The notes: generated by a model not told the origin, from the sequence alone. A stretch of 64,000 bases of DNA from Blasia pusilla (GCA_050084515.1 CM114271.1:38564001-38628000), one strand, 5' to 3'; counted from the first letter of the stretch, positions 8,831 to 42,328 are shown. Numbers and translations are program-made.

Positions 8831-9224
8831 AACTGATATGCCCTCTCAGAAACCTATGAACTCGCCGTCGCTCTCATGCTATCAACTTGAGACCTATCAC
8901 ACGCTCCCAAGTCTCCATTGTGACCTCACTCGGAGATGACGCAACCTCCGACTTTGGTTGCTATGTAGCAACCCTAGCCACCTTCGCAACAATCACTCCA
9001 CTTTGACCTCCTATACCATGCTCCGCATCCAAAAAATGAACATGTGCTACTCTAGCTGCCTTCACACTCTCTGCTCGAACGACGTCCCAGGAAGTCCATG
9101 GGTACCTATCTCTCCTCGTCTCGCCCCCAATCAATGCCTGTACAGACCCTATAGGAAATGGTCCAACTCATGGACGTGACGGCATGGATGACACTCGCAT
9201 CCGTCTCTGCTCAACCATACCTAG

Positions 9225-10175
9225 GCTGACTATCCATGTGAGATAGTTGAGGTCCATTGCCTGCCCCAACACCTGTCTCCGAGATGCCTCAGTCATCCTT
9301 GGCAGTGCCGTAGTACCGGTAGCGAACCCCATGGCGCGCTCGCGCTCATCTGCTATAGGCTCCTCCAATGCTCCGGTCACCTCATCCCAAATCATGCCTG
9401 GCCCTCCTTGACAAAAGGCATGGGATGTTGGGAAGCTCACCAACGTAGGTAAGGCTGCCCTCAACTCCCCCACCCTATTGGCCATGGCCAACGGTGGTCT
9501 ATCATCCCGTGTCACCACTTGAGATCGACGCCCTGAGCCCAAAATAGCATCCACTGTGAGATGTGGTGCTCTCTGGACTCCATCATATGCTCGACTCAGT
9601 ACCTCTGATGGTATCAGGTTCGTCCACCACAATCGTGGATGATGGGCACGTGATCCAACTCTCGCCGCATCTAATAACACAGCAGGTCCCAACCAGGACC
9701 TCATCTGATACACACTCGTCATTACACGTGCGCGAGTGTCTCCCAACAACGGCACGTTCTCCAAGATGTACGTTGGAGGACATGTCTGACTCTCCTGCAA
9801 GTGTCATACTACTCGCAGCATCTCCCAAAACATCCCTGACCTCGGATCCTGCAATCCAAATCCTCGGCCAGCTGATGAATGACCCTGACATGGCCATCCA
9901 GCAATCACCAAATGAATGGTGCTAACTCTATCCAGATCCTGCGCCCCCACCAAAGAGATGTCGGCGGGTAGTGTATGCTGATATCCCCCTACTATAGATA
10001 CTGGCACAACTCAGGATACCTCTGGACCAATCTCGCCACGTGACGTAATAATACTCGCCGCGTAGTCTCATCTCTCTCCACATAAAGGTACTGATGCACC
10101 TGTATGCCCTCCTGCAATACTGCAACCAATCCGGTGCTAATCCCTCCAAAGAGATCTAACACCCTAACACCCTCC
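9225..10175 (-). pseudogene. DNMT3-like DNA (cytosine-5) methyltransferase domain (copy 1)
   Basis: Motif I VLDLFGGISTG, motif II YLYVE, motif IV LVIAGWPCQG (catalytic PC intact), motif VI YILENVP, motif VIII DAARVGSRAHHPRLWWTNL, motif IX ERERAMGF, motif X RRQVLGQAM. Confidence 0.93.
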
Positions 10176-11509
10176 TCTGGGCAATGCCACACAACGGGTG
10201 TGGTATCTAGTGGGGTCAACGTCTCCACTCCAAGAGACCGATTGCCACGTGACTCTCGTTGCTCTGGGATAAAAGCATGACTCCACGCCTACCTCACGAG
10301 GTCGTCAACACTCCTCTGTAGCTCTCGAGTCGTACCCCACAATGGTGAAGAGGTCTCGCCAACATGGGAAGAGACACCCGCCATGGCCTGTCGCTCCGTG
10401 GGACTATCCACTACTGGGACATCCTCCGCATGTGCGTTCCCCTCCAACAACTCTCCAGGCTAGCTAACACTACCTGTGAAAGCCGCCAACGTGGTCACAG
10501 ACTCGCCTCGTGATCGACCACCTCGTCCCGCAAACTGCACGGATAATTGACTCATCCGGCCGTCACCTGACCGCCATCCTGGCCGATAAGCAACGGTCTC
10601 CTCCCAAAAGTCAAGGATGAATCCTAGGGGATATAACACTGTACTCCCCACCAACACATCGTACGACTCAGCTGGTGTCGTAATCGCACATGTGCGCACC
10701 ATAGCACTATCCGTCTCATGCTCTGGATAGACTCTGAAAACTATCTCCTATCGAGTCATATACTGCATGGGTGACATGCCCCCAATCGAGGTCTGTATCT
10801 GGAAGGGACAAGGCTCAATCTTGGCCTTCCGTAACCCCAACGCTAAACACGTCGCCTTCCCTAATATCAAGGGTTACGCTCCCGAATCAAGTAGGACGCG
10901 CTGCGGGTGGTATACTGTCCCCTTCAGACTAACCAAGCGATCCCTCCGATTTGTTGGTGGATTCCATTTTGGATCCAGGATGGCGGTAACAAGCAATGAG
11001 GCATGAGTTAATAGTTGTCAAGAGTATTGGCATGCCACGAGCAACCTTTCCCATATTTTTCTTCTTGCTTCCTATGCATATAAGGAGGTTGGTCTTGGCT
11101 TGGTATGGGATGAACAGGCTTGGTATGGCATCAATCTCTCCACATCGGTTGGTGGAGTCCAACATCAATGATTCAGAGCAAGCAATAGGTTTTCCTATAT
11201 GAGTGATGGAAGTACCAGCACTATCAAAGGCATATCGACGTCATGTCTTGGATGAGGAGATGAACTTGAATTGGTTGACATGGATTCTCATCTTAGGAGT
11301 AATTGAGTAGTGTTAGATGAGATTGGCCGCTCCTGATAAACCAAAATTTGATTACTGGGGTTCAGCGCTTCAAAGGCTCAATTGCGTCCCATGCTAGAGG
11401 TCCCAGACCTCCTCGCGGGGGTAGTTAATTCTTCTATTTTATGGGGGTTCACCAGAATTTTGGCATCATTACAGGATTTGGTATATCGTTTGCATGCGTG
11501 ATAATTAAC

Positions 11510-14500
11510 GCGACAGATCACTACTTTTGCACTTGTGAGCGCCATGCCTACCGAGATGGTTCATGTAGTGGTTGGGGGCAAGGTCCAAGGGGATTGACAT
11601 ATCACGGGTAATCAGGAGAGACACCCTTCGACTTCTTGGGATGTCTTGCAGGTACGCCAAGAGATGGTAGCCACAACATCGAGCCTAGTATATGGTCCTG
11701 CACAACAAGGAGAGAAGAGTGCAAAGTTGGTTACAAGAGACCAATCAAGTTTTGTTGTTCGAGATGGGGTTACACCATAGCAACCGTAAATACCTACGGG
11801 AGAGAGTCCTGTAATGGTCATGATGGAGACTTAGGAGCCAAATATGGGCCTTGATTTGATAGGAGGAAATCGAAATTATATACATTAGTTCCTTAGGAAT
11901 CATAGAACTTTTTTTACGTTTAGTATGCATGATTTTGGTACGTTGAAGGGTCCAGGGATCCACATTGATTTGTCAAGCAACACGCGGATCTTTCGATGAC
12001 ACTACAAGTATAGTGATATGGAGAGAGCTTTGATTTAGAGTAGGAGCCATGACTTGGTTGGACCAAGATAAGTGGAGATTTTGCATGGAGAGTATGCATC
12101 TACCACTATCATGTCTGCCAAGAAGGATGTTCATGGCAATTGGACAGATAGGCACATGTGTGGAGACTACCGACTTATCAATCGGTAAACGAAGTCCAAT
12201 AGGTGTGTTATGCATACTCCAGAGGAGATCTTTGATACTATTGGGCATGCAAAGATCTTTATTTTGTTGGTTCTTCAAGCCAGATATCATTAGGTGCCTA
12301 TCAGATTTGAGGACATGCAGAAGAAGACATTTGGGATATTGATCCTCACATGAAGGATTGTTTGTACTGCTAGTGGTTTTTACCATTTGGGTTGAAGAAC
12401 GTCCTGGGAGAGCTTCAAAGGGTCATGGATAGGATCTTGGCACGTATGGATCTCGCGAGATATTACATCAATGACATCGTAGTCCTTAACGCCATGGTTG
12501 AGGAGCACGAGCGATATTTGGAGGAGGTGTTTTGACGATTGCAATAACAAGGGCTAAATCTAGGAAATTGCAAGTTCTTCTAAGATTACATTGAGTACTT
12601 GGGTCATATAATATACCCAGGTGGTCTCTATCTATCTCACACTCTACGCCCTACAAATGTGGGTCGAGTTTGTGCATTTATGGGATTGACAATATTCTAT
12701 CGATGGTACGTCAAGGGTTTCAGCTTGATTGCAAAGCCACTAACCTTGCTGACCAAGGTGGATCACAAGTGGCACTAGGAGGATGAACAGTGGATATCAT
12801 TTCATTTGCTTAAGGATAGGCTGACGTCCACACCCATACTGAGGAGACCTATAAGGGGGCGTTCTTTCCAATTGCATACAGATTGGAGTATGTTGGAGCT
12901 TGGAGCAGTGCTGACCTAGCATGACGATGAGGTTAGAGAGTTTGTGGTGGCTTATCCTAGTCACTCAAACAACATTACAAAGGCAAAGTATAGCTTGTAT
13001 GAGGGTGAGTACTTAGCTACAATGTAGACTGTCGCGCATTTCAGGTGTTACTTATCCGAAAACCCCTTTACCATCTTCACTAATCACCAACCACTTAAAT
13101 GGTTAATGAAGTTCGATAAGCTTAGATGGTAGCTTGCAAGGTGGGCTCTATTATTGTAAGAGTATGATTTTCAGGTGGTTCATTCACCTGGGACACCCAA
13201 CCAAGATGCGGATGGTTTGAGCCATAATCTATGCCCAAGTCAGTGAGATGCGACTTGAGCTCGTTGGCATTGAGAGAGTGATGAGGAGATGGTGTCTGGA
13301 TGGCACGCGTCAGCATATTTGGGCTTGTTTGCTACAGAGAGCTAGAGTGTTGAGACTTTGATGGCGAGGTTTGATGGAGAGCCCTTAGATCCAAAGGGTG
13401 GTGAGAAGGCGACAGGTGACCGAGATATCCATGAGGATGAAGTAGTCTTAGAATACTTGCATATTGGCAACGTCATGAGCATGGTAGATGCTAGAGAGCA
13501 CAATGGGATTTTACATCGAGCCAGACGATTTTGATGGGAGGGGACACATGTATTGCGAGTCAGCGAGGATGGTAGAGTACACGTAGTGCCTCATCCTTCA
13601 CACAGAGCAAGTTTGGTGCATCACGCCCACGAGGATTTTGGACACTTTGGAGTGAAGCATACGTACAACTTGCTCTAGATATGTATTTGTGGCAAGGCAT
13701 GTAGAGTGACGTTCAATAGTTTGTTTCCAAATACATGGTATGTGATTGGGTCATGGCATCGTTCAATGCTCCAACTCCACAATTATATCCAATGTTCATC
13801 ATGGGTTTAGCTTATAGATGGAGCTTGGATTTTGTATAACCTTTATCTTTGACAGAATGCCACAGTTATTATATGTCGGTGTTGGTCAAACACTTCTCAA
13901 AGTGGATAGAGTTGGTTGCATTGCTTGACAAAGTGAGTGAGGGAGTAGCGTTTTCCTTCTTCAATCGAGTGTTAAGTCATTATGGCGCATCAGCTGAGGT
14001 ATTGACAGACTACGATACGGAGTTTTGCATGGACTTTCAAGCCTTGTGTGATCAGGCACTAATTGATCATGGCACTACTTCACGAGATCATCCTAAGGCG
14101 GATGGACTAGTGGAGAGAATTTTGCATATGGTGAAGATAGGGTTACATAAGTATAGCTTGCAGAGAGGTCACTTAGGAGATTGGGACCTACAACTGCCGT
14201 GGTTGGCGATGGGATATAGATTCAACACGTAGGCATCCTTAACGTCGTTCTCACTGTATTTTTTGCTTTATGGCCGAGAGCCTGATTTACCTGTGGCCAT
14301 TTTTCATAATGCGAGTGAGGTGTTGAATCTTGATGATCTTAATGTATGGATGCGAGCAGTTCTTTGAGGGCTGAGTTATTTTGAAGAGTTATGCCCATGG
14401 CGTTTGAGAACTTGGAAATTGCGCAACATCGGGATAATTTGAGGTATGGGACTATCGAGGGAGGTGGTGATCGACTTACAATACGAAGGTTTCATCAAGG

Positions 14501-15167
14501 AGACTTTGTTTACTTGCAACAGACAACACCAACAACATTGGATATAATCGTAGGGCTCACCATCTTGAGAGTGCAAGATATTTTGCCATCTCGTATTCTC
14601 TTATTGGAGGGACGTAATGGTACGGTTTGGAAGGACCAAGTGCGTAACTGTGCGCCATGTCACCTTCATAACATTGAGGGTATAGTTGATCCGAGCTTAG
14701 CAATAGTTCCTACATACTTACGTTGTATGTTGTGTGGTTCTACCCGTGGTGCAGCCACAATATATGCTAGTCTGTGATGGTTGTTTGAGAGGGTGGCGCA
14801 TGGCATGTTCGACTTCACCTCTCACTAGGGTTACTCGGGGACGATGGATGTGCCCCATATATACATAGAAAAGATATTAGGTAATCATAGATCCATGGTT
14901 TTATATCTGATATGGAGGACAAGAATTTGACTAACAGTAGGGCCACATGAGCACTCGGCCTTTTTGCTCTTAGTGTCCTAGTGATAGGGATAGATGGTTA
15001 TCTGGAGTTAGAGGGACCTAACCACCAGCTAGGGGGACGATAGGAGATATTTTTGTACTCGATAGTCTCGATGTTTAGATCCATGGTTTAGCCTGGTATC
15101 TTGTGTATTTGTGTATATATTTGGTGATATTGTTGTATGTATTATAGCGATGTGTATGAGCACGACA
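11510..15167 (+). mobile_element. DNMT/PHD gypsy-like family, copy 2: 5'-truncated (starts just after the MTase), heavily decayed RT-RH-IN-PHD, ends at B
   Basis: Colinear with 27690-31349. Integrase fragments are ORFs 13849..14232 and 14391..14777. G-tract at ~15031-15039, B at 15040-15167 ending gagcacgaca. Confidence 0.9.
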
Positions 15168-20143: not shown

Positions 20144-23100
20144 TGAGTTTGACTTATTGGGGTTGGCAAGATTGGTTTGTGGAAGAAGGATCCTGCAAGA
20201 GCTAGTTGTACATTGTTATCGAGTTCTCTCATCGTTTTGACGTGATGTCAAGCCACTGTTTTACAATTTTAGTGGTTTCAGTGCCATCACCGAAGAAAGA
20301 TCATGCTTTTCAATCATGAAAATATATATGCTCTCACTCTCTATAACCTTTCATGACTGACCTCCAATGGATCTGTGGCCGGATAATGGATTCCATCTTG
20401 GAGTTAAAAAATGTTCAAATCTTTCATCGTATGTTTGAAGCATATTCATTATTGACACTGCGGGAGTAATATGAGCTCTTCGTCTTCCATATCCGATGAA
20501 GGATAGCTCGTAAGGTGTAATGCATGATTCTCAATGGAGATTATGAGGTCCATTGTTAACTTGCTTGATAATACACAAATCAAGATTCCAAACTAGTTGC
20601 AAGCCTCTCTGACATGGAATCTAGATATCATTCAAATATATAGCTCATAATCCTCTCAGAACTCTCGGCACTAAACTCTTATGGATCCAATGCGCGTATT
20701 TGAGGATAGATAAGAAACAAAACACTTCAACTTATTGAGCTAATAATAAGACCCTCGGATTATTGAGCACAAAAAAATTGATACAACTAAGTTTGGCCAG
20801 GAGAAGTTTTAGTAAATCCTCAAGTGCCTATGGTGAAAAAAACCTCTATCAAATGAACACATGCAATACCCATGGTCCAACGCAAAACCTTGGTGCCAAA
20901 AAACACTAAAAGAAGAAGAATAAGGTTTAGAGCATGGGGGGAAAACTACATATGAAGTGTCCCTTTGGATACTTTGAAAATCGACATAATGTCCTTGATG
21001 CACCAAGTCCAATCGTTGTCGGTTGCTTGAGAATCTTCAAGAATTGTTTTCAATTACTTGAGAAGCTTATGCGACTCATCACCTCTTCTATTAGGAATGC
21101 ATACATGAAGATGTCAATCCCACGATGGTTTACTTGTTTCATCATTCTTCACGACCGGTATACTTGTTTTGTAGATCTGCTTGATGAAGTCATTGATCCA
21201 GATTGGATTAACAAGTTTCTCTGAGTTCAGTCTTATGATCATATCCCAAGCCATTACATGTGTTCGATGCCAACGAGTATCTTGGAATTCAAGGCACGAG
21301 AAAGTGCAATCTAGGTGCAATCAAACATGAAATTGATGCATAGTAGTTGTTGTAGTCACAAGTGCATTTGTTGCTTGTGTGGCAAGTACTTCAAAACTCT
21401 AAAAATTAGATTCATTGTTTCAAAAATGAATAATTGCATAACTAGTAAGGTTTTTCGAGTACTTCTCTGGGTCATCTGCCTCTAATTTCCTTTTTTCATA
21501 AGTTTTCATCATATAATTCCACAACCCACAACTAATGACAAGTGGAGGAACCTCTTTGATCGGCATAATTGCATAGTTGATGACCTTTAAAAGATTTTAA
21601 CTCACTTTACCATAGCATGGCAAAGACAATGCACACCTTGCAAACTTCATAGGTCCTATTTTTCATATATAAGAAGCTACATATGCTATTCATTGAATAC
21701 AATGTCTTTCCAATTCATTGATCCATATGTCATATGTCATGTCTTTTAGAATAAATTGGTGAGATCTAGTAGAGCGCCTTCGTGAGTAGTGGAGGATAGG
21801 CTTAATAGATTGAGGATGACGTGTTGAGGCCCCGAGAAACCTGAGAGAGCAGGTTTCCCCTTCGTTTCGGCTCATTTGGAACCATATTGAGGAACTTCTA
21901 TTTTAGGTAAGTACCATTTTGAATATATGATCAACTTTATATTTTTGGTAAGTGGCCCTTGACCTCTTACATCAGGTCAAGATCCAAGGAGGTGACTTCA
22001 GAGCATAGGCTACCATGGAGAGAGCTTGGGAGAGGGGAGGGATATACCTCAAGGAGAGAGAGCTGAAGAACTCATTCTCTCTTTGTTGAACCTCTTGGCA
22101 TGAGGCGACGGAGCTATGGTCTTGCTTGCCTTGTGTGTGTAACCCAAACCTCTCATTAGGAGAGTGGGTTTGGTTTGACATTGAGAGACACATGTGAGAA
22201 CTTTAGTGTTGTGAGAGAGATTTTATCGTATTTTACAAAGAGAGAATAAGTGAGTGAGGGAGCTTCATGGGGGAGCTCGTTGATCACTCTCTAGTTTTGC
22301 AGATTGGGGATCATATTCCCCATTCAGCGGTTCATGGGAGTGCTCACCGGAGCAAGAGCCGTTTACTTGTGATGTTTCCTATGACGATTTTTTGTGTGAA
22401 AGAGTGGCAGGCGGAAGCGCTGCCCAATTTTTGATAGGGATTGAGTATGGGGGCAGGTTGACCCATGCTGGTGCTCTTGGGAGCACCATGAAGCTTGCTG
22501 ATTTGTGTTCTCATATGTTTTATCGTTGGGAGAAATCAGTGCGGAAGCGCTGCCGAATTATGTGTAGGAGAAAGAGACATTTGGCTTTACGAAAGTCCTT
22601 GTCAGTTTTCACTGGAATGTTTGATTCCAAATATTTTTTTACATTCTTGTAGATTTTTAAGCTATGCAGGTTGTGCAACAAACGGTGTGCAATTTGGAGT
22701 TGCGAGCAAAAAGTTATAGTCAATCTTGCAAAATTGCCATTGCTAGGCGATTTTTAGGGTTAAATGGTTCAAACCCTAAACCAGCCGCCGCGTTGTCATA
22801 GTTGCCGTCAACGGTCACCGTCGATGGTCAACCATCAACCATCACCGTCAATGGTCTGCCATCACCATTAATGGTCCATGATCCACCATCGGCCGCTGCC
22901 CGCTGCTCAGAGTTGCGTTCGTCTGTTGTCCACTCGTTGGTTGCCATTGCCGTCACTAGGGAGTGGAGGGTCTTCCACGACCACCGTTGATTCTCTGACT
23001 TGCGCCGCCACCATGGACTTTGGTTTGGCCACCACCGTCATCACACTTTCGTCATCAACCAATGATGGGAGATAACCCCGGGTTATGGTGTTTGAGTTTT

Positions 23101-23933
23101 CATTTCATGCTGCTATATATGCTATATAGTCGCTTGACAATGATCGAGTACCGTGTCGTGACGCCCGTAGCCGCAACGTGCCGCCAATTGCCGCGTCAAA
23201 CTGCATGTGGTTGCACCGCACCGTCTCGACCGCGGAGCCGCTCCTTCACTAAGGTGCAGAGCATGTGAATTTCTGATTGAGGAGGGTATGCCGTCGAGTG
23301 TCGTGTCGTTTGTAGCCGTTCCGTGCCGCACCGGACTGTTGGACCTGCACCGCACATCGAGGAGATTTGAGCAGCGTCAGTACAAGAGGAGTAGGACTTG
23401 CTAATTGGAGGAGTTGTCTTCAAGACCGAGTTGGGGTCGAGATTTGTAGTTGCCGAGGAGCAATATCGACATTATTATCAAGTTACCTATTATGGTCTCT
23501 CTTACCCTACACGTGTGAGGGATTTTCGGATATTGGGAAGTTATTTGGGATATTGGGTTTTGTGTTGATGCTAGTAGCATCGATGATGTATGGGTTTAGG
23601 GGACATAGATCTGTGTGGGATGTCTAGAGTTGAGGATGGTTTGTCGATGAGACAATAGATCGGTTGATTTGCCGCACCACGCTCCTTGTTGCCGCACAAC
23701 ACACGTCTCAGTGAGAGAGTGTAGATTGAGTGCCGCATGTTTAGTTTAAGTGATTGAGGGATTACTCACGAAATTGAGAGTGATCGTGTGAGAGGGGCAC
23801 GAGGGCCATCACAGCGTCCTTTTGGGATTTTGAGAGGCGAGGTAGTGGACCTGAGAGTAGCTCTGGAGGGTTTACCCGGAGTGGTGCGAGGTTTCGAGGA
23901 TCTCCACGTGAGAGACCACCTCGATCTCCTTTT

Positions 23934-25454
23934 GTGTCATCTTCAGACGAGGGGGAGCGTATAGAGGAGTGTGTTAATGATCCATTGTACACATTGAGTG
24001 ATCCTACCATTTGGGCGTACAAGATGGACGACCAAGGTAGAGGACCGCGTAGGTTTTTGGGTGTTGTAGGCACTATAGAGCTACACGACTGCATTGTGGA
24101 GTTTTGGAGTTGGTGTGACTCATAGCGGGCTAGGAACTCTAGAGAGTTCAACCCGTTTACAGCATGGAACGGTTTGTTCTAGCATTTAGAGGGGGCGCCC
24201 ATGGACGATTACCATGAGTTCTCCCACAGATATGCCCAGAAGATTGAGGCATGGTGACTCTACTATGACCCACACTATATGTCATGGACGAAGTCGTTCC
24301 CTGCTGAGGAGGAGGAGTCAAGAGAGGCTACTTTCTTTTCCACTAGTGATGTTTTAGGAGGGGTCACTCTCACTGGAGCAGTTGCACCATCTAGTCGGGT
24401 TCGTCCCACGTTCAACCCCGTGGTTGAGTTCTTCGCTGAGTTGAGGGCCCAAGGGGTACGGACGGAGAAGTTGCGGAGCATCCATGACTTCCAGAGACGT
24501 CCGGGTGAGAGTTTGGGTGAGGCTTACACTCGCTTGCGCCGGTTGATCAACGTCACTCAAGGGGTGACGGAGGCTCATGCTATCCACTCATGGTACGCGA
24601 TGTTGGACCGGACCCTGCGGACACAGGTGCGGGAGGGGGTGCTTCTTATGGACACCTCCCATACTTTGAGAGATGTTTTTAGGACCGCCAAGAATATTGA
24701 GCGCAACATGGCGGAGGAGAGCGTAGCCACCATGGGTTATGGGCAAGAGCAGTCACGATTTTCTGCACCACCTGTGCAGCAACGTGGACTCCGAGATATG
24801 TCGATTGTGGCACCACGAGCTCAGGGAGGATGGAAGGGCGTGCCTTAGAGACTCGCGTCTTCATATACGGCTCAGGTGCAGCCGACTACTATTACTTGTT
24901 GGTCATGTGGTGGAGCCCATCATCAACACGATTGCACTCGTCAAGATCATGGACGTGTGCCTCAACATGGAAGAGGAGATGGTGCTGCACCAGGAGGTTA
25001 TCAGTGTAACTATTGTCAGAGGTATGGTCATACACGCGCTAGGTATTTCAATTTACATCCTGATTTACGTCCGGACCAAGGGCCAGAGAGGGCACCAGAG
25101 CGAGAAGTGGATCCGGATGGGGCTAGAGGTCGTGCACCAAGTGGTCCCGTTGGGGGACGAGGAGCTAGAGTTTCCCGACAGGATGGTGGAGCTGCCCATG
25201 GAGGAGGTAGAGTCCCACCACCTAGATACGTCGAGGGAGATGTTGGGCGTGAGGCTAGGATGGCTGCTAAGATACAACAGCTACAGGAGCAGATTGCCGC
25301 TATGGCATTGAGGTTACCCGATGTCGGATCCGTGGCATTGACATCATATGGAGCAGACAGAGACATGGAGGATCCTTGTTGGATGTGCGGGATTGCCCAA
25401 ATGGAGGCTGCCGCAATTGTGACACATGGAGCAGCTGTAGAGTGGGATCCATAA
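23934..25454 (+). pseudogene. Gag of copy 3 with two Zn knuckles
   Basis: MHR-like FQRRPGESLGEAYTRLRRL (ORF 24279..24848). Knuckles CWSCGGAHHQHDC and CNYCQRYGHTRARY (ORF 24876..25454). Internal stops are present. Confidence 0.85.
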
Positions 25455-25957
25455 TGAGGGAAAGCCAGGAAACATACTAGGCTTCCTCAGTCTTTCACGT
25501 TGTCTGAGGTGGTGAGGACCCCATCGATGGGTCCTGATCAGAGTTGGTGATGTTGTTGGTGTGCAGGCATGGAGGGCGATGGAAGAAGCAAGTGCGACGA
25601 CTCCTATTGCTGATGCTCAAGAGGGGCATGTGTTGAGCACGTTGTTGGGGGCGGCCATCGTTGTATACCGCGCTCTTTTATTTTCTGCTTCCGATGTTAT
25701 GACGTTGGGAGGTACGCCCGCCAAGGTTTTTTGGCTGGCCGCTACGCTATGTGAGCGTGGAGTTGGAGTTCTTGCATCACGTTTGGAGGTGATTGTAGAG
25801 GAGGTGATGGATCTGCCCTTGGAGCGGATGCTCGGGCCGTCCACGTCAGATTCATGGCAGATTTAGGATGGCAGACATGCCTGCTAGACCCGCGATAGAG
25901 CGTGCCATGGTTTCTCCTGGTGTTGTGTTGCTAGATAACCAGGGAGAGGTCTTCTAG

Positions 25958-26310
25958 TTGGTGACTCCCGGAGGTAGAGCTTTTAGTCCGCAGTGTGTCT
26001 TGGTGGATTCAGGAGCGCAACCCCTAATGTTGGGGAAAGTGTCATTCAAAGGATTGGGCTTGACGAGAGCCGATATGGAGCGTTGTCCATTTCAGATACA
26101 GACATCCTTGGGTGGAGCGAGTACCACAAAGTATATCACCTGATAGGAGGTCGTGGTGAGGATTTTCCCGGGACATCCTACATATGAGTTCGTGGTGCGA
26201 GCCAAGGCGATAGTGATTGATGCAGAGTCCTACGACGTCTTGGTTGGTGGAGCAGTGTTATACTCGATGGGGTTTTCCCTAGATTAGTGGGAGGAGTCAA
26301 CGTCCTACAG
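25958..26310 (+). pseudogene. Aspartic protease (retropepsin) of copy 3
   Basis: VLVDSGAQPLMLG active-site motif, followed by a YDVLVGG C-terminal motif at ~26230. Confidence 0.85.
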
Positions 26311-26714
26311 ACCAGGATGGAAGTCAGGTGATGGGCGCCTTAGCTCATTACCTATTTGATTCACAGGTGCAGTGATCGAGCAACGTCCAGGAGAGATGGC
26401 GACCTTAGCAGCATTTAGTAGTGCCATCACTTGGCTTAGTGATTTGATTGAGGGACATGTCCATGCAGAGGATACTCCTGTTCTTGACATTTCTATGGAG
26501 AGGAGTGTCATGGTAGCCGCATCAGTTCGTGGAGGAGAGGTGCCGCTTTGGGTTTTGACTGAGGGGCTTCGACGCTTTGCCACTGAGCATGTGCAGATTG
26601 CGTGGAGCGAGACATTTGCACTAGAGTGTGACGGGTCAGAGGAACCCTAGGTAGGCAAGAGTGATGCTATGATCCCTTTGGACACCACCCCAATTGTGTG
26701 GTGCACCACATAAG

Positions 26715-27660
26715 GGTATTCGGGTGTTGGATCTCTTTGGAGGGATCAACATTGGGTTAGCTGTTGTTTTGGAGTGCGCGTGCAACAGTACCTGTATGTG
26801 GAGATTGATGATGTTACGAGGCGCGCTTCACTTCACCATGTGGCACTGTTATGCCTCAATTTTCCCGACTTGTTGTCTACGTCCGCCATTCAGGGTTACC
26901 AGAGTTCCCTACCGAGGGACATTTCATTGTTGGGGGTGTAGGACTTTGAGCAGGTAGGGACCATAGACTTGGTCATTGCTGGTTGGTCGTGTCAGGGCCA
27001 ATCGAGTGCTGGACGAGGTAGCGGGTTAGCTGACACTCGTTCTAGGTTGTTTTGGGAGATGATGCGGATCTTGCGACATTTACAAGAGGATCAATCTCGT
27101 TCTCCAACATACATTTTGGAGAATGTGCCAATTTTGGGCAATTCGAGGTTCCGCGTGGTGACGAGTGCACATCAAGTGCGCGCATGGGTCGGCCCGGCAG
27201 TGTTGTTAGATGCAGCGAATGTGGGTTCACGAGCATATCGCCAACATCTTTGGTGGACCAACTTGGTACCACATGAGGTATTGCGGAGGGCTTATGCGAG
27301 AGTGGAGCGTCCCTCTAATTTTTGGGTGGATTCTATATTGGATCCGGGCGGTCAATCACAGGCAGTGAGGAACGATGATCGACCGCCATTGACTTTGGTC
27401 AATAGGATTGGCATGCCACTAGCCGCCTTTCCCACATTGGTGAGTTTCCCGCTTCCTATACATTCAAGGAGGCCGAACCTGGCTTGGTTTGGGATGACCA
27501 CGTACAGAGGTTGGTGGAGCCCAAGGTCGATGAGCGAGAGCGAGCGATGGGATTCCCCCCAGGAGTGACAGAAGTACCGTCACTATTGGAGGCATCACGA
27601 TGTCATGTCTTGGGTCAGGCGATGGACCTGAATTGCTTGACATGGATTTTCAGCTTAGGA
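26715..27660 (+). pseudogene. DNMT3-like C5 methyltransferase domain (copy 3)
   Basis: RVLDLFGGINIG, VIAGWSCQGQ (P>S), SRLFWEMMR, YILENVP, DAANVGSRAYRQHLWWTNL, ERERAMGFPPG, HVLGQAMDL. Frameshifted. Confidence 0.92.
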
Positions 27661-28079
27661 GTAGTTGAGCAGCGTCGTTTGAGGATACGACAAATCACAG
27701 TTGTTGTGTTGGTGAGCCCCATGCCTACCGAGATGGTTGAGGCAGTGGCTGGGGGCAAGACTCGAGGAGATCGACACACGAGGGGTGATCAGGAGAGACA
27801 CCCTTGGACTTCTTGGGATGTTTTGCAAGTACGCAAGGAGATGATAGCCACAACATCGAGCGTGGTTTCAGAAATTGCACGTGGAGATGGGAGTTCTTTT
27901 GTGCAAGACGGGGTTGCACCATAACAACCACCAACATCCGCGCTGGAGAGTCCTATCGTAGTCACAATGGAGACTTGGGAGCCAAATATGGACCCTAAGT
28001 TGACAGGAGGAGAGCGACGTCAAATACACCGGTTCCTTAGGAGTTATAGGAGTTGTTTTGCATTTAGTATGCATGATTT

Positions 28080-29400
28080 GGGTACGCTGAAGGGTCCAGG
28101 GATCCGCATTGAGTTGTCGAGTGACACGTCGATCTTCTGACGACCCTATAGATACAGTGACATGGAGAGGGCTCTCATTCACAGTAGGATCCAGGACTTG
28201 GTTGGAGTAGGACTAGTGGAGATGTCGCATGGAGAGTATGCATCTGCCATTGTCATGCTCGCCAAGAAGGATGTGCATGGCAACTGAACGGATAGGCGAA
28301 TGTGTGGAGATTACTGACCTATCAATCGGCAGACAAAGGCCGATAGGTATGCCATGCCCACCCCTGAGGAGATCTTTGATGCGATTGGGCATGCAAAGGT
28401 CTTCAATTCATTGGATTTGCGATTCGGATACCATGACCTGCATATCAGATTGGAGGACGGGCAGAAGACGACATTTTGGGGCATCGATCCTCACGGGAAG
28501 GATTGTTTGTACTAGTGGCGGTTCTTACCATTCGGGTTAAAGAATGCTCCGGCTGAGTTTCAGAGGGTCATGGATAGGATCTTGGCACGTCTGGATTTTG
28601 CTAGGTGTTATATTGATGACATCGTAGTCTTTAGCGCAACGGTTGAGGAACATGAGCGACATCTACAGGAGGTGTTTCAACAATTGCAGTTACATGGGCT
28701 GAAGCTACATCCAGGCAAGTGCAAGTTCTTCTACGACCAGATTGAGTACTTGGATCATACAATATACCCTGGGGGCCTTGGTGTGCAATAGACAAAGGTA
28801 GAGGCTATTTCACGCATTCCACGCCTACAGATGTGAGTCGAGTTCGTGCATTCATGGGATTGGTGAACTTCTATCGACGGTACGTCAAGGGTTTCAGTTT
28901 GATTGCGAAGTTGCTAACCTTGATGACCAAGGTGGACTAGGAGTGAAACTGGGAGGATGAGCAAGAGAGAGCATTTCACATGCTCAAGGACAGATTGACA
29001 TCCGCGCCCATATTGAGGAGACCGATCAGGGGTCGTCCTTTCCAGTTGCATATTGATTGGAGTATGTTGGGGCTTGGAGCTGTGCTCACCCAACATGAAA
29101 ATGATGGTAGAGAGTCTGTGGTGGCTTATGCTAATCACTCAAACAACGCTGCAGAGGCAAAGTATAGCTTGTATGAGGGTGAGTGCTTGGCTGCAGTGTG
29201 GATTATCGCACATTTCAGATTTTATCTATTTGGCAATCCCTTTACTATCTTTACTGATCATCAGCAACTTAAGTGGTTGATGGAGTCCGACAAGCTTATA
29301 GGGAAGCTTGGGGGTGGGCTCTTTTGTTGCAGGAATATGACTTCCAGGTGGTGCATAGACCTGGGACGCTCAACCAAGATGTAGATGGTTTGAGCCGTAA
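28080..29400 (+). pseudogene. Reverse transcriptase and RNase H of copy 3
   Basis: YIDD at 28609-28620, LKLHPGKCKF, LHIDWSMLGLGAVL, YEGECLAAVW, FTDHQQL. Confidence 0.92.
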
Positions 29401-29779
29401 CACATGCCTGAGTCAGCGAGATGCGACTCGAGCTCGTTGGCATGGTGAGAGTGATGAGGAGTTGGTGCTAGGATGGCATGCGTCAGCCTATTTAGGCTTG
29501 TTTGCTATGGAGAGCCAGATTACGGAGACTTCGATGGCGAGGTCTGATGGAGAGTCCTTAGATCCAGAGGTTGGTGAGGATACGATAGGTGGCCAAGACA
29601 TTCACGACGATGGAGTGATCTTGGAGTACCTACGTAGTGGCAGCGTCGCGAGCACAGTGGGTTCTAGAGAGCGGGATCAGATCCTACAATGAACCAGATG
29701 GTTCCGGTGGGAGGGCACACATGTGTTGCGAGTGTGGGAGGATGGTAGAGTGCGTGTAGTGCCTCATCCTTCGTAGAGA

Positions 29780-31039
29780 GCACGTTTGGTGCGTCATGCC
29801 CACGAGGAGTTAGCTCATTTTGGAGTGAAGTGGACGTACAACTTGCTCCAGATTCAGTAATGGTGGCGAGGCATGCAGACTGACGTTCAACAGTTTGTTT
29901 CCAGATGCATGGTGTGTGATCGAGTCTAAGCATCGTTCAATGCTCCAACTCCACAGTTGCATCCACTTCCAATCATGGGTTTAGGTTATAGATGGAGTTT
30001 GGATTTTGCAGGACCTTTGCCTTTGACGGAGCGCCATAGTCGTTATATGTTGGTGATGGTCGAGCACTTCTCAAAGTGGATAGAGTTGGTTGCATTGCCT
30101 GACAAAGTGAGTGAGGAAGTTGTGTATGCCTTCCTAGATTGAGTGTTGAGTCATTAAGGCATACTAGTTGAGGTGTTGACAGACCAGGGTATAGAGTTCC
30201 GCAGGAAGTTTGAGGCCTTGTGTGATCAAGCACTGATCGACCACCGCACTACTTTGCGAGATCATCCTGAGGCAAATGGACTAGCGGAGCGGGTTGTGCA
30301 GACGATGAAGAGAGGACTATGCAAGTATGGCTTGCAGAGAGGTCACCTTAGAGATTGGGACCTTCACTTGCCCTGGTTGGCGATGGGATACAGATTCAGC
30401 ATGCAAGCATCCATAGCGTCTTTCTTACCGTACTTTTTGCTTTATGGCCGTGAGCTAGATTTACCAATGGCCATTCATCGAGATATTCATGAGGTGTTGA
30501 ACCTTGATGATCCTGATGTATGGATACGAGCATGTTCTAAGAGGGCTGATTTATTTCGGAGAGTGATGCCCATGGCGTTTGAGAACTTGGCGATTGCGCA
30601 ACATCGGGATACGTTGAGGTATGCGACTATTCGGGGAGGTGATGATCGACATACTATCTGGAGGTTTCATCAGGGAGACTATGTCTACTTGCAGCAGACA
30701 ATACCCACGACGTTGGATGTGACTGCAGGGCGCACCATCTTAAGAGTGCGTAAGTTTTTTCCATCCGGTGTTCTCTTATTGGAGGGACGCGATGGTATGG
30801 TTTGGAAGGACCATGTGCGTAACTGTGCGTCATGTCATCTTCCAAACATTGACAGTAGAGTTGATCCGAGCTTAGCAATAGTTCATGCAGGCTTGCGGTG
30901 TATGTTGTTTGGTTTCGCCCGTGGTGCAGCCACTATGCTAGTCTATGATAGTTGTTCGAGAGGATGGCATATGGCATGTTTGACGCCACCTCTCACTAGG
31001 GTTCCTCAAGGACAATGGATGTGTCCCAGATGTACATAG
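29780..31039 (+). pseudogene. DDE integrase with C-terminal PHD finger (copy 3)
   Basis: HAHEELAHFG/CMVCD zinc motif, WSLDFAGP, LTDQG, GLAERVVQT, RFHQGDYVYL and a PHD at ~30892-31039. Confidence 0.92.
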
Positions 31040-32059
31040 AGTAGGTAGTTTTATATTTTGACTTGTGTCTGTGACATGGATGAGAAGAAGGCGACTAGCG
31101 ATGGGGCCACGTGAGCACCCGACCTTCTTGCTCTTAGCGTTCAAGAGATGTATGTCATGGTAGGTAGGAATAGATGGCTATCTAGAATTAGAGGGACCTA
31201 ACCCCCAGCTAGGGGGGCGATTGGAGATATTTTGGTACTTCTTGACTCGTTGTTTGGATGCCATGAGTTAGCATGGGATCGTGCGTGTTTGTGTGTGTGT
31301 GTTCGGTGACAGCGGGGTATGTTGTGTAGCGATGTGTATGCGCACGACACATACGTAGAAGACAAAACCCAAAATTGTCATTAGCTGCCACATCCTAACT
31401 CTGATTAGCTTCCAAAAAACAAGAATATTTGCTCACACAAATTATAATTAGCCTCTAGTATGAAGTGAAATTAGTTGCCAAAAAAATTATGAATAGCCAT
31501 TGTTTCTCAACTTGGTCAACTATTCTCAATTATAAATAGTAGTAAAAAGTAGCCATCGTCTATACACAAATGACTATTGTCAAGTATCAAGGCATTCTCT
31601 AACAATAGGGATCACAAATGGTTGTGTTGAGGAAATCACTTCTTCATAGCATCTAATTCTGGAATCTCAAAAATCTCTATAAACTACTTTGCATTTTTAT
31701 ACTAGGAAAATATCACAATTGTTATTGAACCTTACTTGAGGATATCTATTTACATCTATAAGTTGTTAAATGAGGACATACAATGTAGAATCCCAAGTCC
31801 TTCCATAAATAATAATTGGAAGTATCACTAGATTTGGTGATTGCATGATTTAGTTATAAACGTCTCTCCAAAATGCTAGACCAAATAGCTAATAAACCAA
31901 TGCTTATCTACAAAGAGGCTAGGACATTTATACGGTTTGGGTTAAGAAAAGAAAAATCAGATACCACTCGTGCTCCATCTCTATCCATGTTTGATAAACA
32001 TCCTCTATCTTACTCTCTCTTCCTATAAAGTTTAAGATTACTGATGATTGTTATAATTA

Positions 32060-36700: not shown

Positions 36701-37445
36701 ATGCTAGATTTTCAAAACATAAGATTTTTTGGGATAATCCTTTTTCTTTTCATACTCAATCACATCACTACACAATATATACTTATCATCATCCGACAAG
36801 ATAAAAAATCCTAAAAATTGAACTTAAATCATGGAATACATATCCATACAATCATATACTAATAGGTCTCCAATAAAAATTAGTGTGCAACCATACTCTC
36901 CCATCAAAAAACTCTCTTCTACGTAAAATCAAACCTACATACTCATTCCCACCTCATCAATAGATTATGGTTAACCTATCGAGATGAACACTCATTGTGA
37001 GAATGCCAAGCATATACTATTTATTCCCATGTAAGGATCAAGGTTGCACACGAAAAAAGTCTGTGTCCACAAACATGTCTATGCGGGCCTAGGTACGCGT
37101 GGCTCCCATATGAGCCCGCGGCCTTAGGTTGCGGGCTTGCCGTGGGCAAGTGCAAGATGTACGCGGGCCAAAAGAGGGTGTGGACTCAGCTAGCCCACAT
37201 GTAGGCAATGGGATCAAGGGCGGCCTTGGATGTAGGCCGTGGGTACCCAGGTGGCATGTCCATCCCATATATGAACCGTCTTGTTCGTTTATGTGCAACC
37301 TTGGTGAGGATTTGAGGGTGAGCACGCGTTTGGTGATATTTTGATTGTGATGGAACTGATGATGCTTGATGTGTATAGAATGCTATATCATGTCATGTAG
37401 ATGTGACGTGTACTATCTAGCATTAGGCAGACCCAATTTCCAATT

Positions 37446-38181
37446 AGGGGGACAATTTCCTGGTCTTGGTGTACATTTGTAAGTATATTTTGTTTGTGTG
37501 TGAATCTACCCATATGTTGGGAAGATCAATGTTGTGTTTTGTGTAGATATGAACAGAAACATGAATTGTGTATGCGCATAACATTTGTCACATCTTCCTA
37601 AGCTAACATGGAGAGTTATACCGTGTCGGAAATATAGAGGGTTAGTAGGTTGTTTGGGTGTAACTTGATCATGAGGTGTCAGATGAGGCTGACAAATTTT
37701 AAGAGTCTTATCTTTTGTTATTCTCAGCCAAGTGACCATATGATCAAGTCAAGGGTCATTAGGTTACTTGTGCATGCAAGTTATCGTTTGGATGGTTCTT
37801 TTTTGGGGAAGAGATTTTGCCTCTTGCGAAGGGTATAAGAGAAGGAGAGAGGGCTTTCCCAAGCCATCTTTCTCATGTTGAGCCTTAGGAGCACCTCTCT
37901 TGTTTAGTTTTTAGTTGGAACTAAGGTGCTAAAGTTTAGATACCCTTATGGCGAAGGATGGATGTGGCTTGCTATCATATACAAATTTGAGAGTGAAGTT
38001 TTCCGTATGAGTTGTTTTTACTTGGATTTTACAATTGTGTGGTCTTAGTATGCATGCATAGATGATCTTAGAAAATTTTGTTTCTGTGTGTATCTACCCG
38101 TGTGTTGGGAAGATTTATATTATATGTTGTATAGATATGACTAACGATGTGAATTGTGTAGTAATGTGTATGCGCACCACA
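37446..38181 (+). mobile_element. 3'-terminal remnant of the DNMT/PHD family: PPT, B1 (37452-37583), TT, A2 (37586-38030), B2 (38031-38181)
   Basis: The tagggg(g) tract is followed by B1 ending gcgcataaca, then tt and tgtcacatc (same start as A of copy 1). The A segment shares ccaagccatctttctcatgttg...ggagcacctc with the copy 1 A. B2 ends gcgcaccaca. Confidence 0.82.
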
Positions 38182-41100
38182 TAGAGCATATCTTTAGATA
38201 TTTTAAGAAACTATATAAAATTTCCCACATTTATCCTAAATGATTGTCTTTTTTTTCATCTCACATTTCTCATACCAAAATTTTCCAAAAGATACAATAT
38301 ATGTATTATATAAATAAAGTATTGCAACATACTACAAAAATTATTTTCTATCCTACAAGATGAAATAAATGGAAGAGAATAGATGTATTTCAAAAATTTA
38401 GAATGAAGCTTAATATTACTTAAAACCTTTAATTCTGAGAAAATAATGAAGTATGAGTACGGTAATTTTTTTAAAAATTAGGCTTTTTGGATAAAAGCAA
38501 TGAGAAGATGTGTAATGAATCAAAGAAAACAAAACATAAAGCAAGAATCTTTCATGATTGCGAGTGCTACTAGTAGTATTAATAATCCAAAATAAAATAG
38601 CATCTTGTATGTTTCCCATGAGTTATAATATCAAACCCACTCCTGAAAAAATTTCAAGAAAGTTTGGCATATAAATATTAGGACATCAAAATCCCATTTT
38701 GGACTTTACTTCTATAGTCTTTGTCAAGATCCGCCATTATATTTAGAATTAACCCCAAAATAGGCACTTAGTTTTTAGACCATTATCTCACATATATGTG
38801 TATAGAGTAAAAAGAATTTACATGAATAGTATTGACTACTACTAAAGTCTTTACATCAAATAGAACAAAGTCTAATATTAATCTAAAGATATGAACAACA
38901 AACTATGATGATACAAGGTCATATTTAAGTACGAAATATCTTATACTATAGAAAAATAAAATCATTTGCAAGTGTGTATGGATTGAAATATATATTAATT
39001 TATAGAACCATTAAGTTATTTATAATAATTTATATTTTCATATATAATTGGATTATTTTTATTTAAGAATATATCTTGATGTACCCAAGTATATAGGGTA
39101 TTAAATTAAACATTTTTTATGACTGGAAATATATGTGACATAATTAAGAAAAAAATTATAAGATTTCTTATTTAAATGATTTTTATCAACTCTGATTGTA
39201 ATAAATTCTTTATGGAGATCCCAAAAATCAAATAGATGAGTACACATGAAATATCTTCATCAAACGCATCAACATAAAAAAAATATTAGCACATGGCTTT
39301 GATGGATTACAATAAATAATCAAAGATAAAGAACCTTAATCAAAGATAAGAATGAATCAAAAATATTATTACCATTAATTACACTCTAATGAAGCCTACA
39401 TTTGAAGGAAAAATGAACTTACTCATTTTTTGCAAATCATCTAGAAAACCCACTCCTAAAATTTATAATTACAAGTTTTCCTAATGCACATTATTATACA
39501 TAACTCTTAAGATATCTTAGAGAAGTTCCATCTACTAAACTTCTCTTTATTATATTATAAATTTCCCTTCTATGCAAATATTTGACCTTCTTCATGCAAT
39601 CATGTCAATGAGAGAATGTGGAATAGTCATCAAAGTATATGAATACATTTAAAATCCAGAAATATTGAAATCTAGCAGGACATGCATATGATCATGATGA
39701 TTGCAAAAGCATTTGTAATAATCTTCAAAGGAAATGAACAACTCCAATATAAATTAAAATAGGTGTAGAAGGTTTCTTTTTTTTAATTCTCATTTGCAAG
39801 ATAAAGAAAATGTATCATGATCATGAAGTTATAAGGAAACTTTTTAAAAATATCCAAACATTGTAAATTAATATGAAAGTTCTAATTTTTCACAACTCTT
39901 ATTCAAGGGGCCACTTTTAAGACTATGTATGCCACAAGTTTCTCTTTTGTCCAAAGTCTCATCTAGATTATACATGAACGTTTACATCTAGTGGCTATTA
40001 TCTTTCTACGAAACGATATTATATGGCATGTAAATGGAGGTTGGTATACATACTCCAACATCATACCAATTTTATACCACAATATTTTCACCGAAAATCT
40101 AAGGATTTTTAATAGTTTTGGATGTTTCATCAAAGATTGTTTTGTGATGCCTTTGTCACGACTGTTAGGATAGATCGGTGGGATCTAGCAAAGCATCTGC
40201 AAGAGTAGTGGAGGATAGGCCCAAGAGGTCGAGGATGACTTTTTGAGGCCCTAGGAAATCTAAGAGAGCAGGTTTCCCCTTCGTTTTGGCTCATTTGGAG
40301 CCATATAGAAAAACTTACTATTTCAGGTAAGTTTCCATGTTAGGGATAGTTGAATTTCCACTTTGGGAAGTGGCCCTTGACCCGCTACAGCAGGTCAAGA
40401 GCCAAGGAGGTGACCTACGAGCATAGGTTACCATTGAGAGGGTTTGGGAGAGGGAAGCGGGTATACCTCCAAGAGAGAGCTTGAGACCTCAATGTCTCTT
40501 TGTTCAACCTCTTGGCATAAGCCAACGGAGCTATGGTCCCTTGCTTTGTGAGTGTAACCCAAGCCTCTCATTAGGAGAGTGGGTTTGGTTTGACATGAGA
40601 AAGAGTGCACACCTTTGAGAGCTATGGTGTGAGATGGTGTAGAGAGAGATTGGATCTTACTTTACAAAGAGAGAATGAGAGAGCTCCATGGGGGAGCTCG
40701 CTGGTCACTCGTTGTTTTTGCACGCTGGAGACCGTGTTCCCCGTTCAGAGGCTCATGGGAGTGCTCACCGGAGCAAGGGTTTCTTTGATTGTTCTTTGCA
40801 TTTGTCGATTTTTGGTGTGGAAGAGTGGCCCGCAGAAGCGCTACCCAGTTTCTGATAGGGATTGATTATGGGAACGGGTTGCCCCATGTTGGCGTCTCGA
40901 AAGCACCATGTATCCAATTGATTTGTATTTCTACATGTTTTACATTTTCTTTGGAAGAAATCAGCCTGGAAGCGCTGCCAAATTTTATGTAGGAGAAAGA
41001 GATATTGGGCTTTACAACAGTCCCTGTCAATTTTTACTGGAATGTCAAATTATAAATATTTTTTGATGCTATTGCAGATCATAAAGCTATGCACATTGTG

Positions 41101-42328
41101 CAAGAAACAATGGGAAATTTGGAGTTGCGAGCAAAAAGTTATGGTTAATCTTGCAAAATTTCCATTGCTAGGCAATTTTAAGGATGAAATTGTTCAAACC
41201 CTAAACCAGTCGCCACGCCGGCGACGGCCGTCACCGTCATAGTCACCATCAATGGTCCGCCCTCAAAGGTCAACTATCACCGTCAATAGTCCACCGTCTG
41301 TTTTCCACCCTTTGGTTTCCATTGCCTCCATTACGGAGTGGAGGGTCTTCCACGACGTTCGTTAATTCTCTGACTTGCGTCGCCACCATGTACTTTGTTT
41401 TGCCCGGCACCATCATCGCAGTTTCATCATCAACCAATGATGGCAGATGACCTCCGGTTATGGTGTTTAAGTTTTGATTTCATGCTGGTATGTTGTGATT
41501 GGTAGCCGCTCGACGACGATCGAGTACCGTGCTGTGACGCCCGTAGCCGCGACGCGTCGCTGATTGCTGCGCCGTGCCGCTCGTGGCCGCACCGCAACGT
41601 CTCGATTGTGGAACTGATCCTTCACTAAGGAGCAGAGCGTGTGAATTTCTGATTGAGGAGGGTATGCCACCGAGTGCCGCACCCCATTCGCGAGTGCCGT
41701 GTTGTTTGTAGCCGTTCCGTGCTGCCATTGTCGCACCGGACCGCTCGACCTGCACCGCACATCGAGGAGGTTGAGCAGCGTCAGTACGAGAGGAGCAAGA
41801 CTTGCTGATTGGAGGCGTTATATTCACAACCGAGTTGGGGTCGAGATTTGCAGTTGCTGAGGAGCGACATCGACATGTGTTCAGGTTACCCATTCTGGTC
41901 CTTTACCCTCCACGCGTGAGGGATTCTGGGATTTGGGTAGTTTATTTGGGGATATTGGGTTGTGTGGATGCTGAGAGCATCATTCATGTATGTGGTTTAG
42001 GGGACATAGACCTGTGCGGGATGTCTAGAGTTGAGGGTAGGTTGTCGATGAGATGATAGCCTGGTCGATTTACCGCACCACGCCGCATGTTGTTGCACGT
42101 TACACGTTTCCGGGAGGGAGAGTGTAGATCCAGTGCCGCATGTTTGGGATGAGTGATTGAGGGATTACTCATAAGGTTGAGAGTGATCAGGTGAGAGGGT
42201 CACGAGGGTCATCACGACGTCCGTTTGGGTCTTTGAGAGGCGAGGTGGTGAATATGAGAGTAGCTCTAGAGGTTTTACACGGAGTGGCGCGAGGTTCCAA
42301 GGGTCTCCACGTGAGGGACCACCTCGAC

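Follow-up and report, generated by a model that had tools for sequence, protein, structure and literature searches.

How can a long terminal repeat (LTR) retrotransposon be inserted with intact ends and carry no terminal repeat? The question is raised by one copy of a Ty3/gypsy family, here called el, in a stretch of 64,000 nucleotides from Blasia pusilla (GCA_050084515.1, CM114271.1:38564001-38628000), which we call the window and whose positions are used throughout. A preliminary description had reported at 21731..31353 a full-length, "LTR-less" element with TG...CA ends, a 4-bp target-site duplication (TSD) and no terminal direct repeat. Reading of the flanks and a BLAST search of 21735-31349 against the window agree with this description of the ends. 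The copy opens with TGTCATG at 21735 and closes with GCACGACA at 31349, CATA stands directly outside both ends (21731-21734, identical to 31350-31353), and the search found no likeness between the two ends of el. The interval first given includes both duplications, and the element proper spans 21735-31349 (9.6 kb). It is full-length in extent but not in coding content, since every open reading frame (ORF) is broken. "LTR-less" describes this copy well but not its family, in which split repeats are usual and el represents a fairly common repeat-less form. The inserted form of the family appears to be a circular permutation of its reverse-transcription product, and this permutation would account for the layout of both kinds of copies.

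Positions 21735 and 31349 are true ends, and not chance breakpoints, because other copies begin or end at the same nucleotides. The first nucleotide of el is common to copy c3 (40154) and also to c3b and c4b. Its end nucleotide is common to c2 (15167, where the preliminary description correctly had this copy stop), c3 (53362), c4 (60277), ca (5506 and 4887, minus strand) and c5 (37583 and 38181). The match between the flanks of el is of 4 bp only, as it fails at 5 bp (TCATA vs CATAC), and by simple arithmetic such a match has a chance of about 1 in 180 in DNA of ~38-43% GC. A second complete member of the family, L009, found on a metagenome contig, likewise has a perfect 4-bp flanking repeat, again CATA (at 1985-1988 and 7158-7161), and the duplication of el is therefore unlikely to be due to chance. 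Hence, TG...CA ends with CATA on both sides are found in 2/2 complete copies with intact ends, and a 4-bp TSD, first noted at el alone, recurs in another copy. Only L009 among the related loci gave a second duplication. No paralogous empty site for el was found within the window or the 66 metagenome loci described below.

Two segments make up the ends of the element. Segment A (500 bp, 21735..22234, plus strand) starts with TGTCATG, and its end is set by read joints from 22234 to 31220. Segment B (130 bp, 31220..31349, plus strand) ends with GCACGACA, and its start is set by the same class of joints, whose right side is always 31220. The window copies, the genomic reads and the 66 metagenome loci agree that the usual inserted form is A1-internal-polypurine tract-B1-NN-A2-B2, where NN stands for two bases. 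In the window this form is seen at the 3' end of ca (4887..10906, minus strand, 5'-truncated), where the polypurine tract (PPT, 5638-5628) is followed by B1 (5627-5506), TC, A2 (5503-5025), B2 (5024-4887) and then flank. It is also seen in c5 (37368..38181, plus strand), of which only the 3' end is present, with the end of pol, the PPT, B1 up to 37583, TT, A2 from 37586, B2 up to 38181 and then flank. Copy c3 (40154..53812, plus strand) has its A1 start at 40154, a chromovirus nested at 42328-49642, the end of B1 at 53362, AT and then A2 at 53365-53812, with the last ~50 bp of A2 and the whole of B2 gone. The likeness of its A1 to A2 is 92.4% over 448 bp, against 77-78% between c3 and the neighbouring c4 in pol. 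A2 of c3 must therefore have been made with A1 at one insertion. Copy c4 (55591..61104, plus strand) is 5'-truncated and in a tandem arrangement: its B ends at 60277, and behind it come AC and another A, which continues into internal sequence (60280-61104). Finally, the 5'-truncated copy c2 (10936..15167, plus strand) has, like el, a single B lying directly against unrelated DNA.

Sequencing reads give the same picture for the family as a whole. We placed the reads of two raw whole-genome runs (~1.97 billion letters read from each) and two contig sets on 21600-31500 at 80% likeness. The resulting tables are thus family-wide and not specific to the el locus; the figures given are those of run X13, and run X14 gave the same picture. 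Depth was ~5300 in B, 2510-2768 just before B, ~4500-4900 in A and 2200-3500 in the internal region, so that A and B are each present about twice, on average, for every internal region; depth in the adjacent flank was ~10. A joint from the A region to B was found in 695 reads, with the right side always at 31220, directly after the PPT, and the left side at 22234/22235 (281 reads), at 22223 or 22233 (10 reads) or at 22181 or 22199 (404 reads). A loose end at 22181 has 1660 reads, and at 22181-22199 el appears to be without letters that the family has. The B end was joined back to the A start in 461 reads, with AC (135), GT (65), GC (64) or AT (46) in between. Most family reads are less than 90% alike to el, and more than half of the positions at which el and the reads vary are C>T or G>A changes (1390 + 1663 of ~5500), as expected from the decay of methylated cytosines. 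The dominance of these changes would account for the AC, GT and AT spacers as transition derivatives of a self-complementary GC. The idea that NN consists of fresh letters added at each insertion was considered and set aside as probably unnecessary.

The related loci were obtained by scanning metagenome contigs with the integrase-PHD ORF, which gave 66 loci in 27 groups by shared flank. Six groups were left out: those of L022 and L052 (distant lineages), L037 (too short), L044/45 (ambiguous), and L040 and L047/55/56 (3' end missing). Two more were merged by shared flanks (L013-15 with L005/6, and L049 with L009). The 19 informative groups divide into 12 with NN-A after B, B2 being visible in 10 of these, and 7 with unrelated DNA after B, of which L024/41 is tentative because its B is interrupted. 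Together with the window, where two of six 3' ends have a single B, this makes 9 single-B ends out of 25. The coexistence of the A...BAB and A...B forms, raised in the preliminary description, is therefore real, with A...B-NN-A-B the usual form and A...B found at about one third of the informative 3' ends. No A1 partners were found within 9-10 kb upstream of L012, L020 and L049. L009 is a complete split-repeat element (1989-7157) with CATA beside both its A1 start and its B2 end. It follows that everything from A1 to B2 entered the target together, at a staggered cut of 4 bp.

How do these repeats relate to the LTR made by reverse transcription? In the standard model of LTR synthesis, the plus strand starts after the PPT and the minus strand at the primer site. 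The PPT TAGGGGGGCG of el (31210..31219, plus strand) lies directly before B, and (C)TAGGGGGGCG abuts the B start in 5/5 aligned window copies (el, c2, c3, c4 and ca) and in related loci. A putative primer binding site of the self-priming type (22235..22247, plus strand) follows A directly. It is a perfect 13-nt complement of 22074-22086, ~160 nt upstream, and none of 2000 shuffles reached 13 nt. The centroid fold of el pairs the primer site with this complementary stretch, and a TATA-like GATATACC lies at 22041-22048, ~30 nt before it. Hence, the putative 5' end of the RNA would fall at 22074-22086, a prediction made from the TATA-like motif only. In L009 the sequence differs but the arrangement recurs: its complement lies 136 nt upstream and measures 13 nt as scored (0/2000 shuffles) or 16 nt by reading of the sequence. 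In c3 the complement has 9 nt (22/2000 shuffles). A primer motif of the tRNA-Met type was found nowhere in the gypsy family, the sole match being in the nested chromovirus. With the PPT abutting B and the primer site abutting the end of A, reverse transcription would build an LTR of the form B-NN-A, 130 + 2 + 500 bp in el. As judged from these sequence signals, A would then hold the 3' part of U3, R and U5, and B the 5' part of U3. This reading of the repeat, as B-NN-A, is the only one that places the PPT before the 3' repeat and the primer site after the 5' repeat. Reads, loci and the mapping of PPT and primer site thus show that the A start and the B end are the inserted ends and that B-NN-A is a real junction, as had been proposed. 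An LTR of this form is also what the preliminary description's 1-LTR circle or doubly cut cDNA, opened at B-NN-A, would require.

The permutation has implications for the mechanism of insertion. The inserted ends, TG of A and CA of B, sit at an ACA-NN-TGT palindrome inside B-NN-A, and the A2|B2 joint is the end of an LTR joined to the start of another. The CATA duplication of L009 points to integrase-mediated insertion of the permuted molecule. Retroviral integrases are described, in the available text of PMC1905944, as cutting the palindromic LTR-LTR junction. The integrase of the Blasia family could similarly cut after CA on both strands of its palindrome; the 2-bp spacer would then leave two recessed CA-3'OH ends with 2-nt 5' overhangs, like the 3'-processed ends of retroviruses. 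Two LTRs joined head to tail, as in a 2-LTR circle, would give A1-internal-B1-NN-A2-B2 if the opening falls in the LTR that precedes the primer site. The form of el, A-internal-B, would result from opening a 1-LTR circle at its palindrome or from cutting a linear complementary DNA (cDNA) at both internal sites. Because the 3' R, in A2, is missing, such a single-B copy could not make a terminally redundant RNA and would be dead on arrival. We tentatively propose that the attachment site of an integrase-bearing Ty3/gypsy lineage was relocated from the tips of the LTR to an internal palindrome, and that the lineage inserts from head-to-tail joined or circular cDNA, with 2-LTR circles yielding A...BAB copies and 1-LTR circles A...B copies. 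This proposal is possible rather than probable. If correct, it would be a natural case of the old model in which the circle junction serves as the attachment site, and an independently evolved equivalent, with a DDE integrase, of the DIRS/Ngaro layout.

Several observations weigh against this reading of the permutation and its signals. The permutation alone is what suggests a circular or linear cDNA substrate. The mirror permutation, A.B-NN-A...B, was found at 0/4 informative 5' ends (el, c3, L009 and L040), and it should be equally frequent because a single-site cut of a 2-LTR circle gives either form. The complement of the primer site is absent at 2/5 5' ends (L035 and L040, both decayed), and the region of the primer site is GA/CT-rich in el. 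Both perfect duplications, at el and L009, are the same word CATA. A further copy, L035 (452-8294), looks complete and has flanks that differ (ATCA vs AGAT) and a diverged A1 start; we set it aside as uninformative.

The second question is how el came to have a single B. We give roughly an even chance to its formation at insertion, from a substrate with one LTR. The relevant evidence comes from a young lineage in which B1 and B2 of L001 are 98.1% alike, and L001, L016 and L039 show a pairwise likeness of 96.7-98.1%. The three copies have different flanks, and two of them have a single B. Elsewhere, single-B copies make up 5/16 of the other, mostly old groups and 2/6 of the window 3' ends. The share of single-B copies does not seem to rise with age, although the numbers are small, and split-repeat copies persist with B1 and B2 only 77-88% alike. 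The preliminary description had suggested that young A...B copies would favour direct integration. They exist, in two of the three copies of one young lineage, which is in line with that suggestion; their number is small and a loss between the two Bs could still explain them. Formation at insertion is weakened by this count of only three copies, and by the fact that an early loss could mimic it, because recombination is fastest while the repeats are identical. A further weakness is that the reads provide only a weak, rough estimate, of about a quarter of B1 ends meeting flank directly, which depends on an agreement of 0.42 among 2634 loose ends behind 31349.

The main competitor, which we consider plausible though short of probable, is a split-repeat insertion that later lost NN-A2-B2 (~630 bp) when B1 and B2 underwent unequal recombination or single-strand annealing. 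Most copies in both reads and loci have split repeats, and el is old, as its ORFs are all broken and most family reads are less than 90% alike to it. This history also predicts an intact duplication, as kept in el, and deletions are known in these copies, c3 having lost B2 and the end of A2. However, B is short for such recombination (107-138 bp), many split-repeat copies survive at 12-22% divergence between B1 and B2, and a lineage at ~2-3% divergence already has two single-B copies out of three. The longer A repeats (280-500 bp) should moreover produce solo A.B units at least as often, and none were seen in the window or in the loci. This last count is biased, since the loci were picked by an internal gene and hence against solo units, and the read depths allow for some solos. 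A collapse of two Bs by the assembler, hiding an A2-B2 after 31349, is very improbable. B repeats are indeed short and close together, the read tables are family-wide, and reads unlike the window at 21700-21701 suggest that the sequenced plants are not identical to the assembly. Yet the same single-B end occurs in c2 and in seven independent flank groups from other assemblies, split-repeat ends were correctly assembled three times in the window (ca, c5 and c3), and the right flank begins with the same 4 bp as the left one.

Could the layout itself have another origin? A tyrosine recombinase acting on a circular intermediate, as in DIRS, Ngaro and PAT elements, would make CATA a shared recombination core, and the repeat layout is that of those elements as far as the available text of PMC4157794 and PMC7192593 describes it; that both perfect flank repeats read CATA would also fit. 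But no tyrosine recombinase was found in the 27 ORFs or pieces of el, 12 ORFs of c3 (9 from the 5' region and 3 from the pol region), 2 of ca and 3 of L002 that were tested, and L002 encodes a full Integrase_H2C2 + rve integrase. Moreover, the ACA of the B end and the TGT of the A start are complete inside the CATA words, so that CATA lies outside the joint, and other single flanks read CCTT, CAGC, TCAC and GGTT. We therefore regard a recombinase as scarcely credible. Even less credit is due to an ordinary LTR element, with A.B (~630 bp) or B alone as LTR and repeats lost by chance deletions. A2.B2 does resemble a TG...CA unit of usual LTR size, and for B as the LTR one can cite the PPT before it and the two bases followed by A after it. 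With A.B as the LTR, the PPT should precede A and the primer site follow B, the reverse of what is observed. With B as the LTR, B should precede A1, and of the four informative 5' ends none has it there; moreover, nothing would have given rise to the duplicate A1 and A2 (92.4% alike in c3). Against either version, independent copies share exactly the same two terminal nucleotides.

The coding content of el is that of a decayed Ty3/gypsy copy with all reading frames broken, in the order gag, protease, Dnmt3-like methyltransferase, reverse transcriptase, RNase H, DDE integrase and PHD finger, all on the plus strand. A putative 2-kb leader (22248..24257) precedes these genes without any recognisable domain; Pfam was blank for 12 ORFs of el and for 9 ORFs of the matching part of c3. 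The gag-like region (24258..25454, frames broken) was recognised from ORF translations with CCHC-type knuckles and has only a weak zinc-finger match. The remnant of an aspartic protease (25958..26287) has a DSGA motif in translation and no Pfam match in el, and the matching ORF of the near-intact L002 matches Asp_protease_2. The broken Dnmt3-like C5 cytosine methyltransferase (26673..27672, its extent taken from similarity to ca) lies between protease and reverse transcriptase, and matches PF00145 (E 4.8e-10) on 26942-27568. Its best solved relatives are DNMT3A/3B/3C, a weak match (E 3e-4). Twelve long protein relatives of this piece are 49-67% identical, and the named ones among them are from the liverworts Marchantia polymorpha and Calypogeia fissa; in a protein atlas the piece retrieved generic DNA methylase clusters only. 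Then follow the broken reverse transcriptase (27925..28800; RVT_1, E 1e-21, on 28516-28791), RNase H (28947..29384; RT_RNaseH_2, E 2.4e-30), and the broken DDE integrase core with its C-terminal region (29930..30928). The integrase was assigned from its relatives and from an rve match on the fragment 29930-30142 (70 residues), which at 24.9 bits is under the Pfam cut-off. A PHD finger (30929..31039; PF00628, E 4.3e-7, and E 4.2e-11 in c3) closes the integrase C-terminus and is followed by a stop codon. In el, c3 and L002 it takes the place of the chromodomain with which the integrase of chromoviruses ends. L002 (metagenome contig, 2477-7775) has the same order with scores above the cut-off, its ORFs holding protease and DNA_methylase, then RVT_1, RT_RNaseH, Integrase_H2C2, rve and PHD. 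We also found a distant lineage (L022, L023, L038, L051-L054, L057, L060-L063 and L065) whose integrase-PHD is 35-40% identical and whose Pol extends ~100 codons past the PHD finger; the L060-62 loci have a 396-bp tandem repeat downstream.

The flanks of the copies show some further features. TGTCAT stands just before the TGTCATG start of el (window 21728-21741), and in L039 (484-492) the B end is followed by CA and then by TGTCATG, the first 7 nt of A. Flanks resembling the tips of the element itself may, like the CATA common to both perfect duplications, reflect a target preference. The region behind el (31350-31640) was considered as a decayed A2-B2 and rejected, since its local alignments with A and B of el, c3, ca and c5 are within the range of shuffled sequences. 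In the left flank, all reads (10 and 11 in the two raw runs) have T,G at 21700-21701, where the window has C,A; either the sequenced plants differ from the assembly or these reads come from a paralogue. A repeat family starting 286 bp downstream of the el 3' end (31632-33900, plus strand) recurs directly after the ca 3' end (3811-4890, minus strand). The two are 71-76% alike and in the same orientation relative to the element, which could reflect a shared target or chance; the one at el is interrupted by a chromovirus LTR at 32746-33739.

Other elements in the window complete its description. The chromovirus nested in c3 (42328-49642, minus strand) has LTRs 98% alike, TG...CA ends and the 5-bp TSD reported before, TCGAC; its tRNA-Met-type primer motif lies at 48638-48649, and ~23918-23925 of el is the homologous empty site. 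A short element with inverted arms (53889-54332, arms 53918-54030 vs 54207-54319), like a miniature inverted-repeat element, follows the truncated A2 of c3 directly and has window copies at 18042-18277 and 3421-3589. The A end and primer site of the tandem copy behind c4 have given way to a (GT)n(GA)n microsatellite (60653-60735). Copies ca (minus) and c2 (plus) meet head to head, ~30 bp apart (10906-10936), and their 5' truncations fall at about the same point of the methyltransferase, which suggests an inverted duplication or a breakage event.

These results may have consequences beyond this locus. The definition, detection and dating of LTR retrotransposons all depend on a pair of identical terminal repeats. 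The Blasia lineage departs from this rule, although its reverse-transcription layout and its DDE integrase are normal. Programs that search for LTRs will overlook its copies or join them wrongly, and those with a single B cannot be dated by LTR divergence. This matters in a family so abundant, with an internal depth of ~2200-3500 against ~10 in the adjacent flank. If the attachment site does lie inside the LTR, the family would provide a natural system in which to study how integrases choose ends and would test circular cDNA as a productive substrate. The family also brings the split repeats seen in tyrosine-recombinase elements under a simple logic of permutation. Furthermore, the Dnmt3-like enzyme and the PHD finger bear on the interplay of transposons with the chromatin marks of the host.

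How does the family compare with known systems? The closest we found is KnitGypsy-Dnmt3 of Klebsormidium nitens, described with A-coding-B-A-B repeats "as in DIRS" (de Mendoza et al. 2018, PMC5890265). Going by the available text of that paper, it shares with the Blasia family the Gypsy-type domains, a Dnmt3-like methyltransferase inside Pol and the A-coding-B-A-B layout; el itself is A-coding-B. In that text the layout appears only in a figure legend, and ends, duplication, PPT, primer mapping and single-B copies are not mentioned. Comparing the two by description, the Blasia family differs in that its named protein relatives are from liverworts and its integrase ends in a PHD finger. A preprint (10.64898/2026.05.21.726589) names "streptophytes (Gypsy-DNMT3)" in passing, in the part available, and KnitGypsy was not found by name in the searched literature beyond PMC5890265. 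The same search, which covered papers without their supplements, found none joining split repeats with an integrase and a duplication, and none on a methyltransferase-bearing Gypsy element in liverworts. DIRS-order elements (PAT-like, Ngaro and VIPER) share the order A1-internal-B1-A2-B2, in which the B1-A2 joint is the joint of two ends, and to our knowledge they make no TSD. They carry a tyrosine recombinase, according to the available text of PMC4157794 and PMC7192593, whereas the Blasia family has a DDE integrase, TG...CA ends and a 4-bp duplication. Self-priming has been described in Tf1/sushi, and the Tcn1 clade of non-seed plants is predicted to use it too (PMC6317226, available text). 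By their features as given there, these elements lack a tRNA-type primer site and have after U5 a stretch that could pair with the predicted 5' end of the RNA, an arrangement to which the putative primer site of el and L009 would correspond; they have ordinary LTRs and a chromodomain, whereas the Blasia family has permuted repeats and a PHD finger. Solo-LTR recombination offers a parallel for the loss of a B, as an exchange between B1 and B2 would delete NN-A2-B2 and leave the duplication in place; unlike in that process, the product here keeps the whole internal region, and the repeats are of only ~110-140 bp. The spacer of the retroviral LTR-LTR junction is of 4 bp. The junction of retroviral 2-LTR circles is also a CA...TG palindrome, which integrase cuts internally (PMC1905944), an activity that our proposal requires; in retroviruses this is a side reaction on a by-product, whereas here the palindrome lies inside the LTR, with a spacer of 2 bp, and would serve as the usual site of attachment. 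Among Ty3/gypsy elements generally, the Pol order protease-reverse transcriptase-RNase H-integrase and the TG...CA ends with a 4-6 bp duplication are shared by the Blasia family; identical direct terminal repeats on the inserted copy are not, as el has none and other copies have them split. Hence, el is a variant of a known but barely described kind of element. What is new here is the mapping of PPT and primer site onto split repeats, the PHD finger, the 4-bp duplication that encloses a complete split unit with its TG...CA ends, and the frequency of repeat-less copies.

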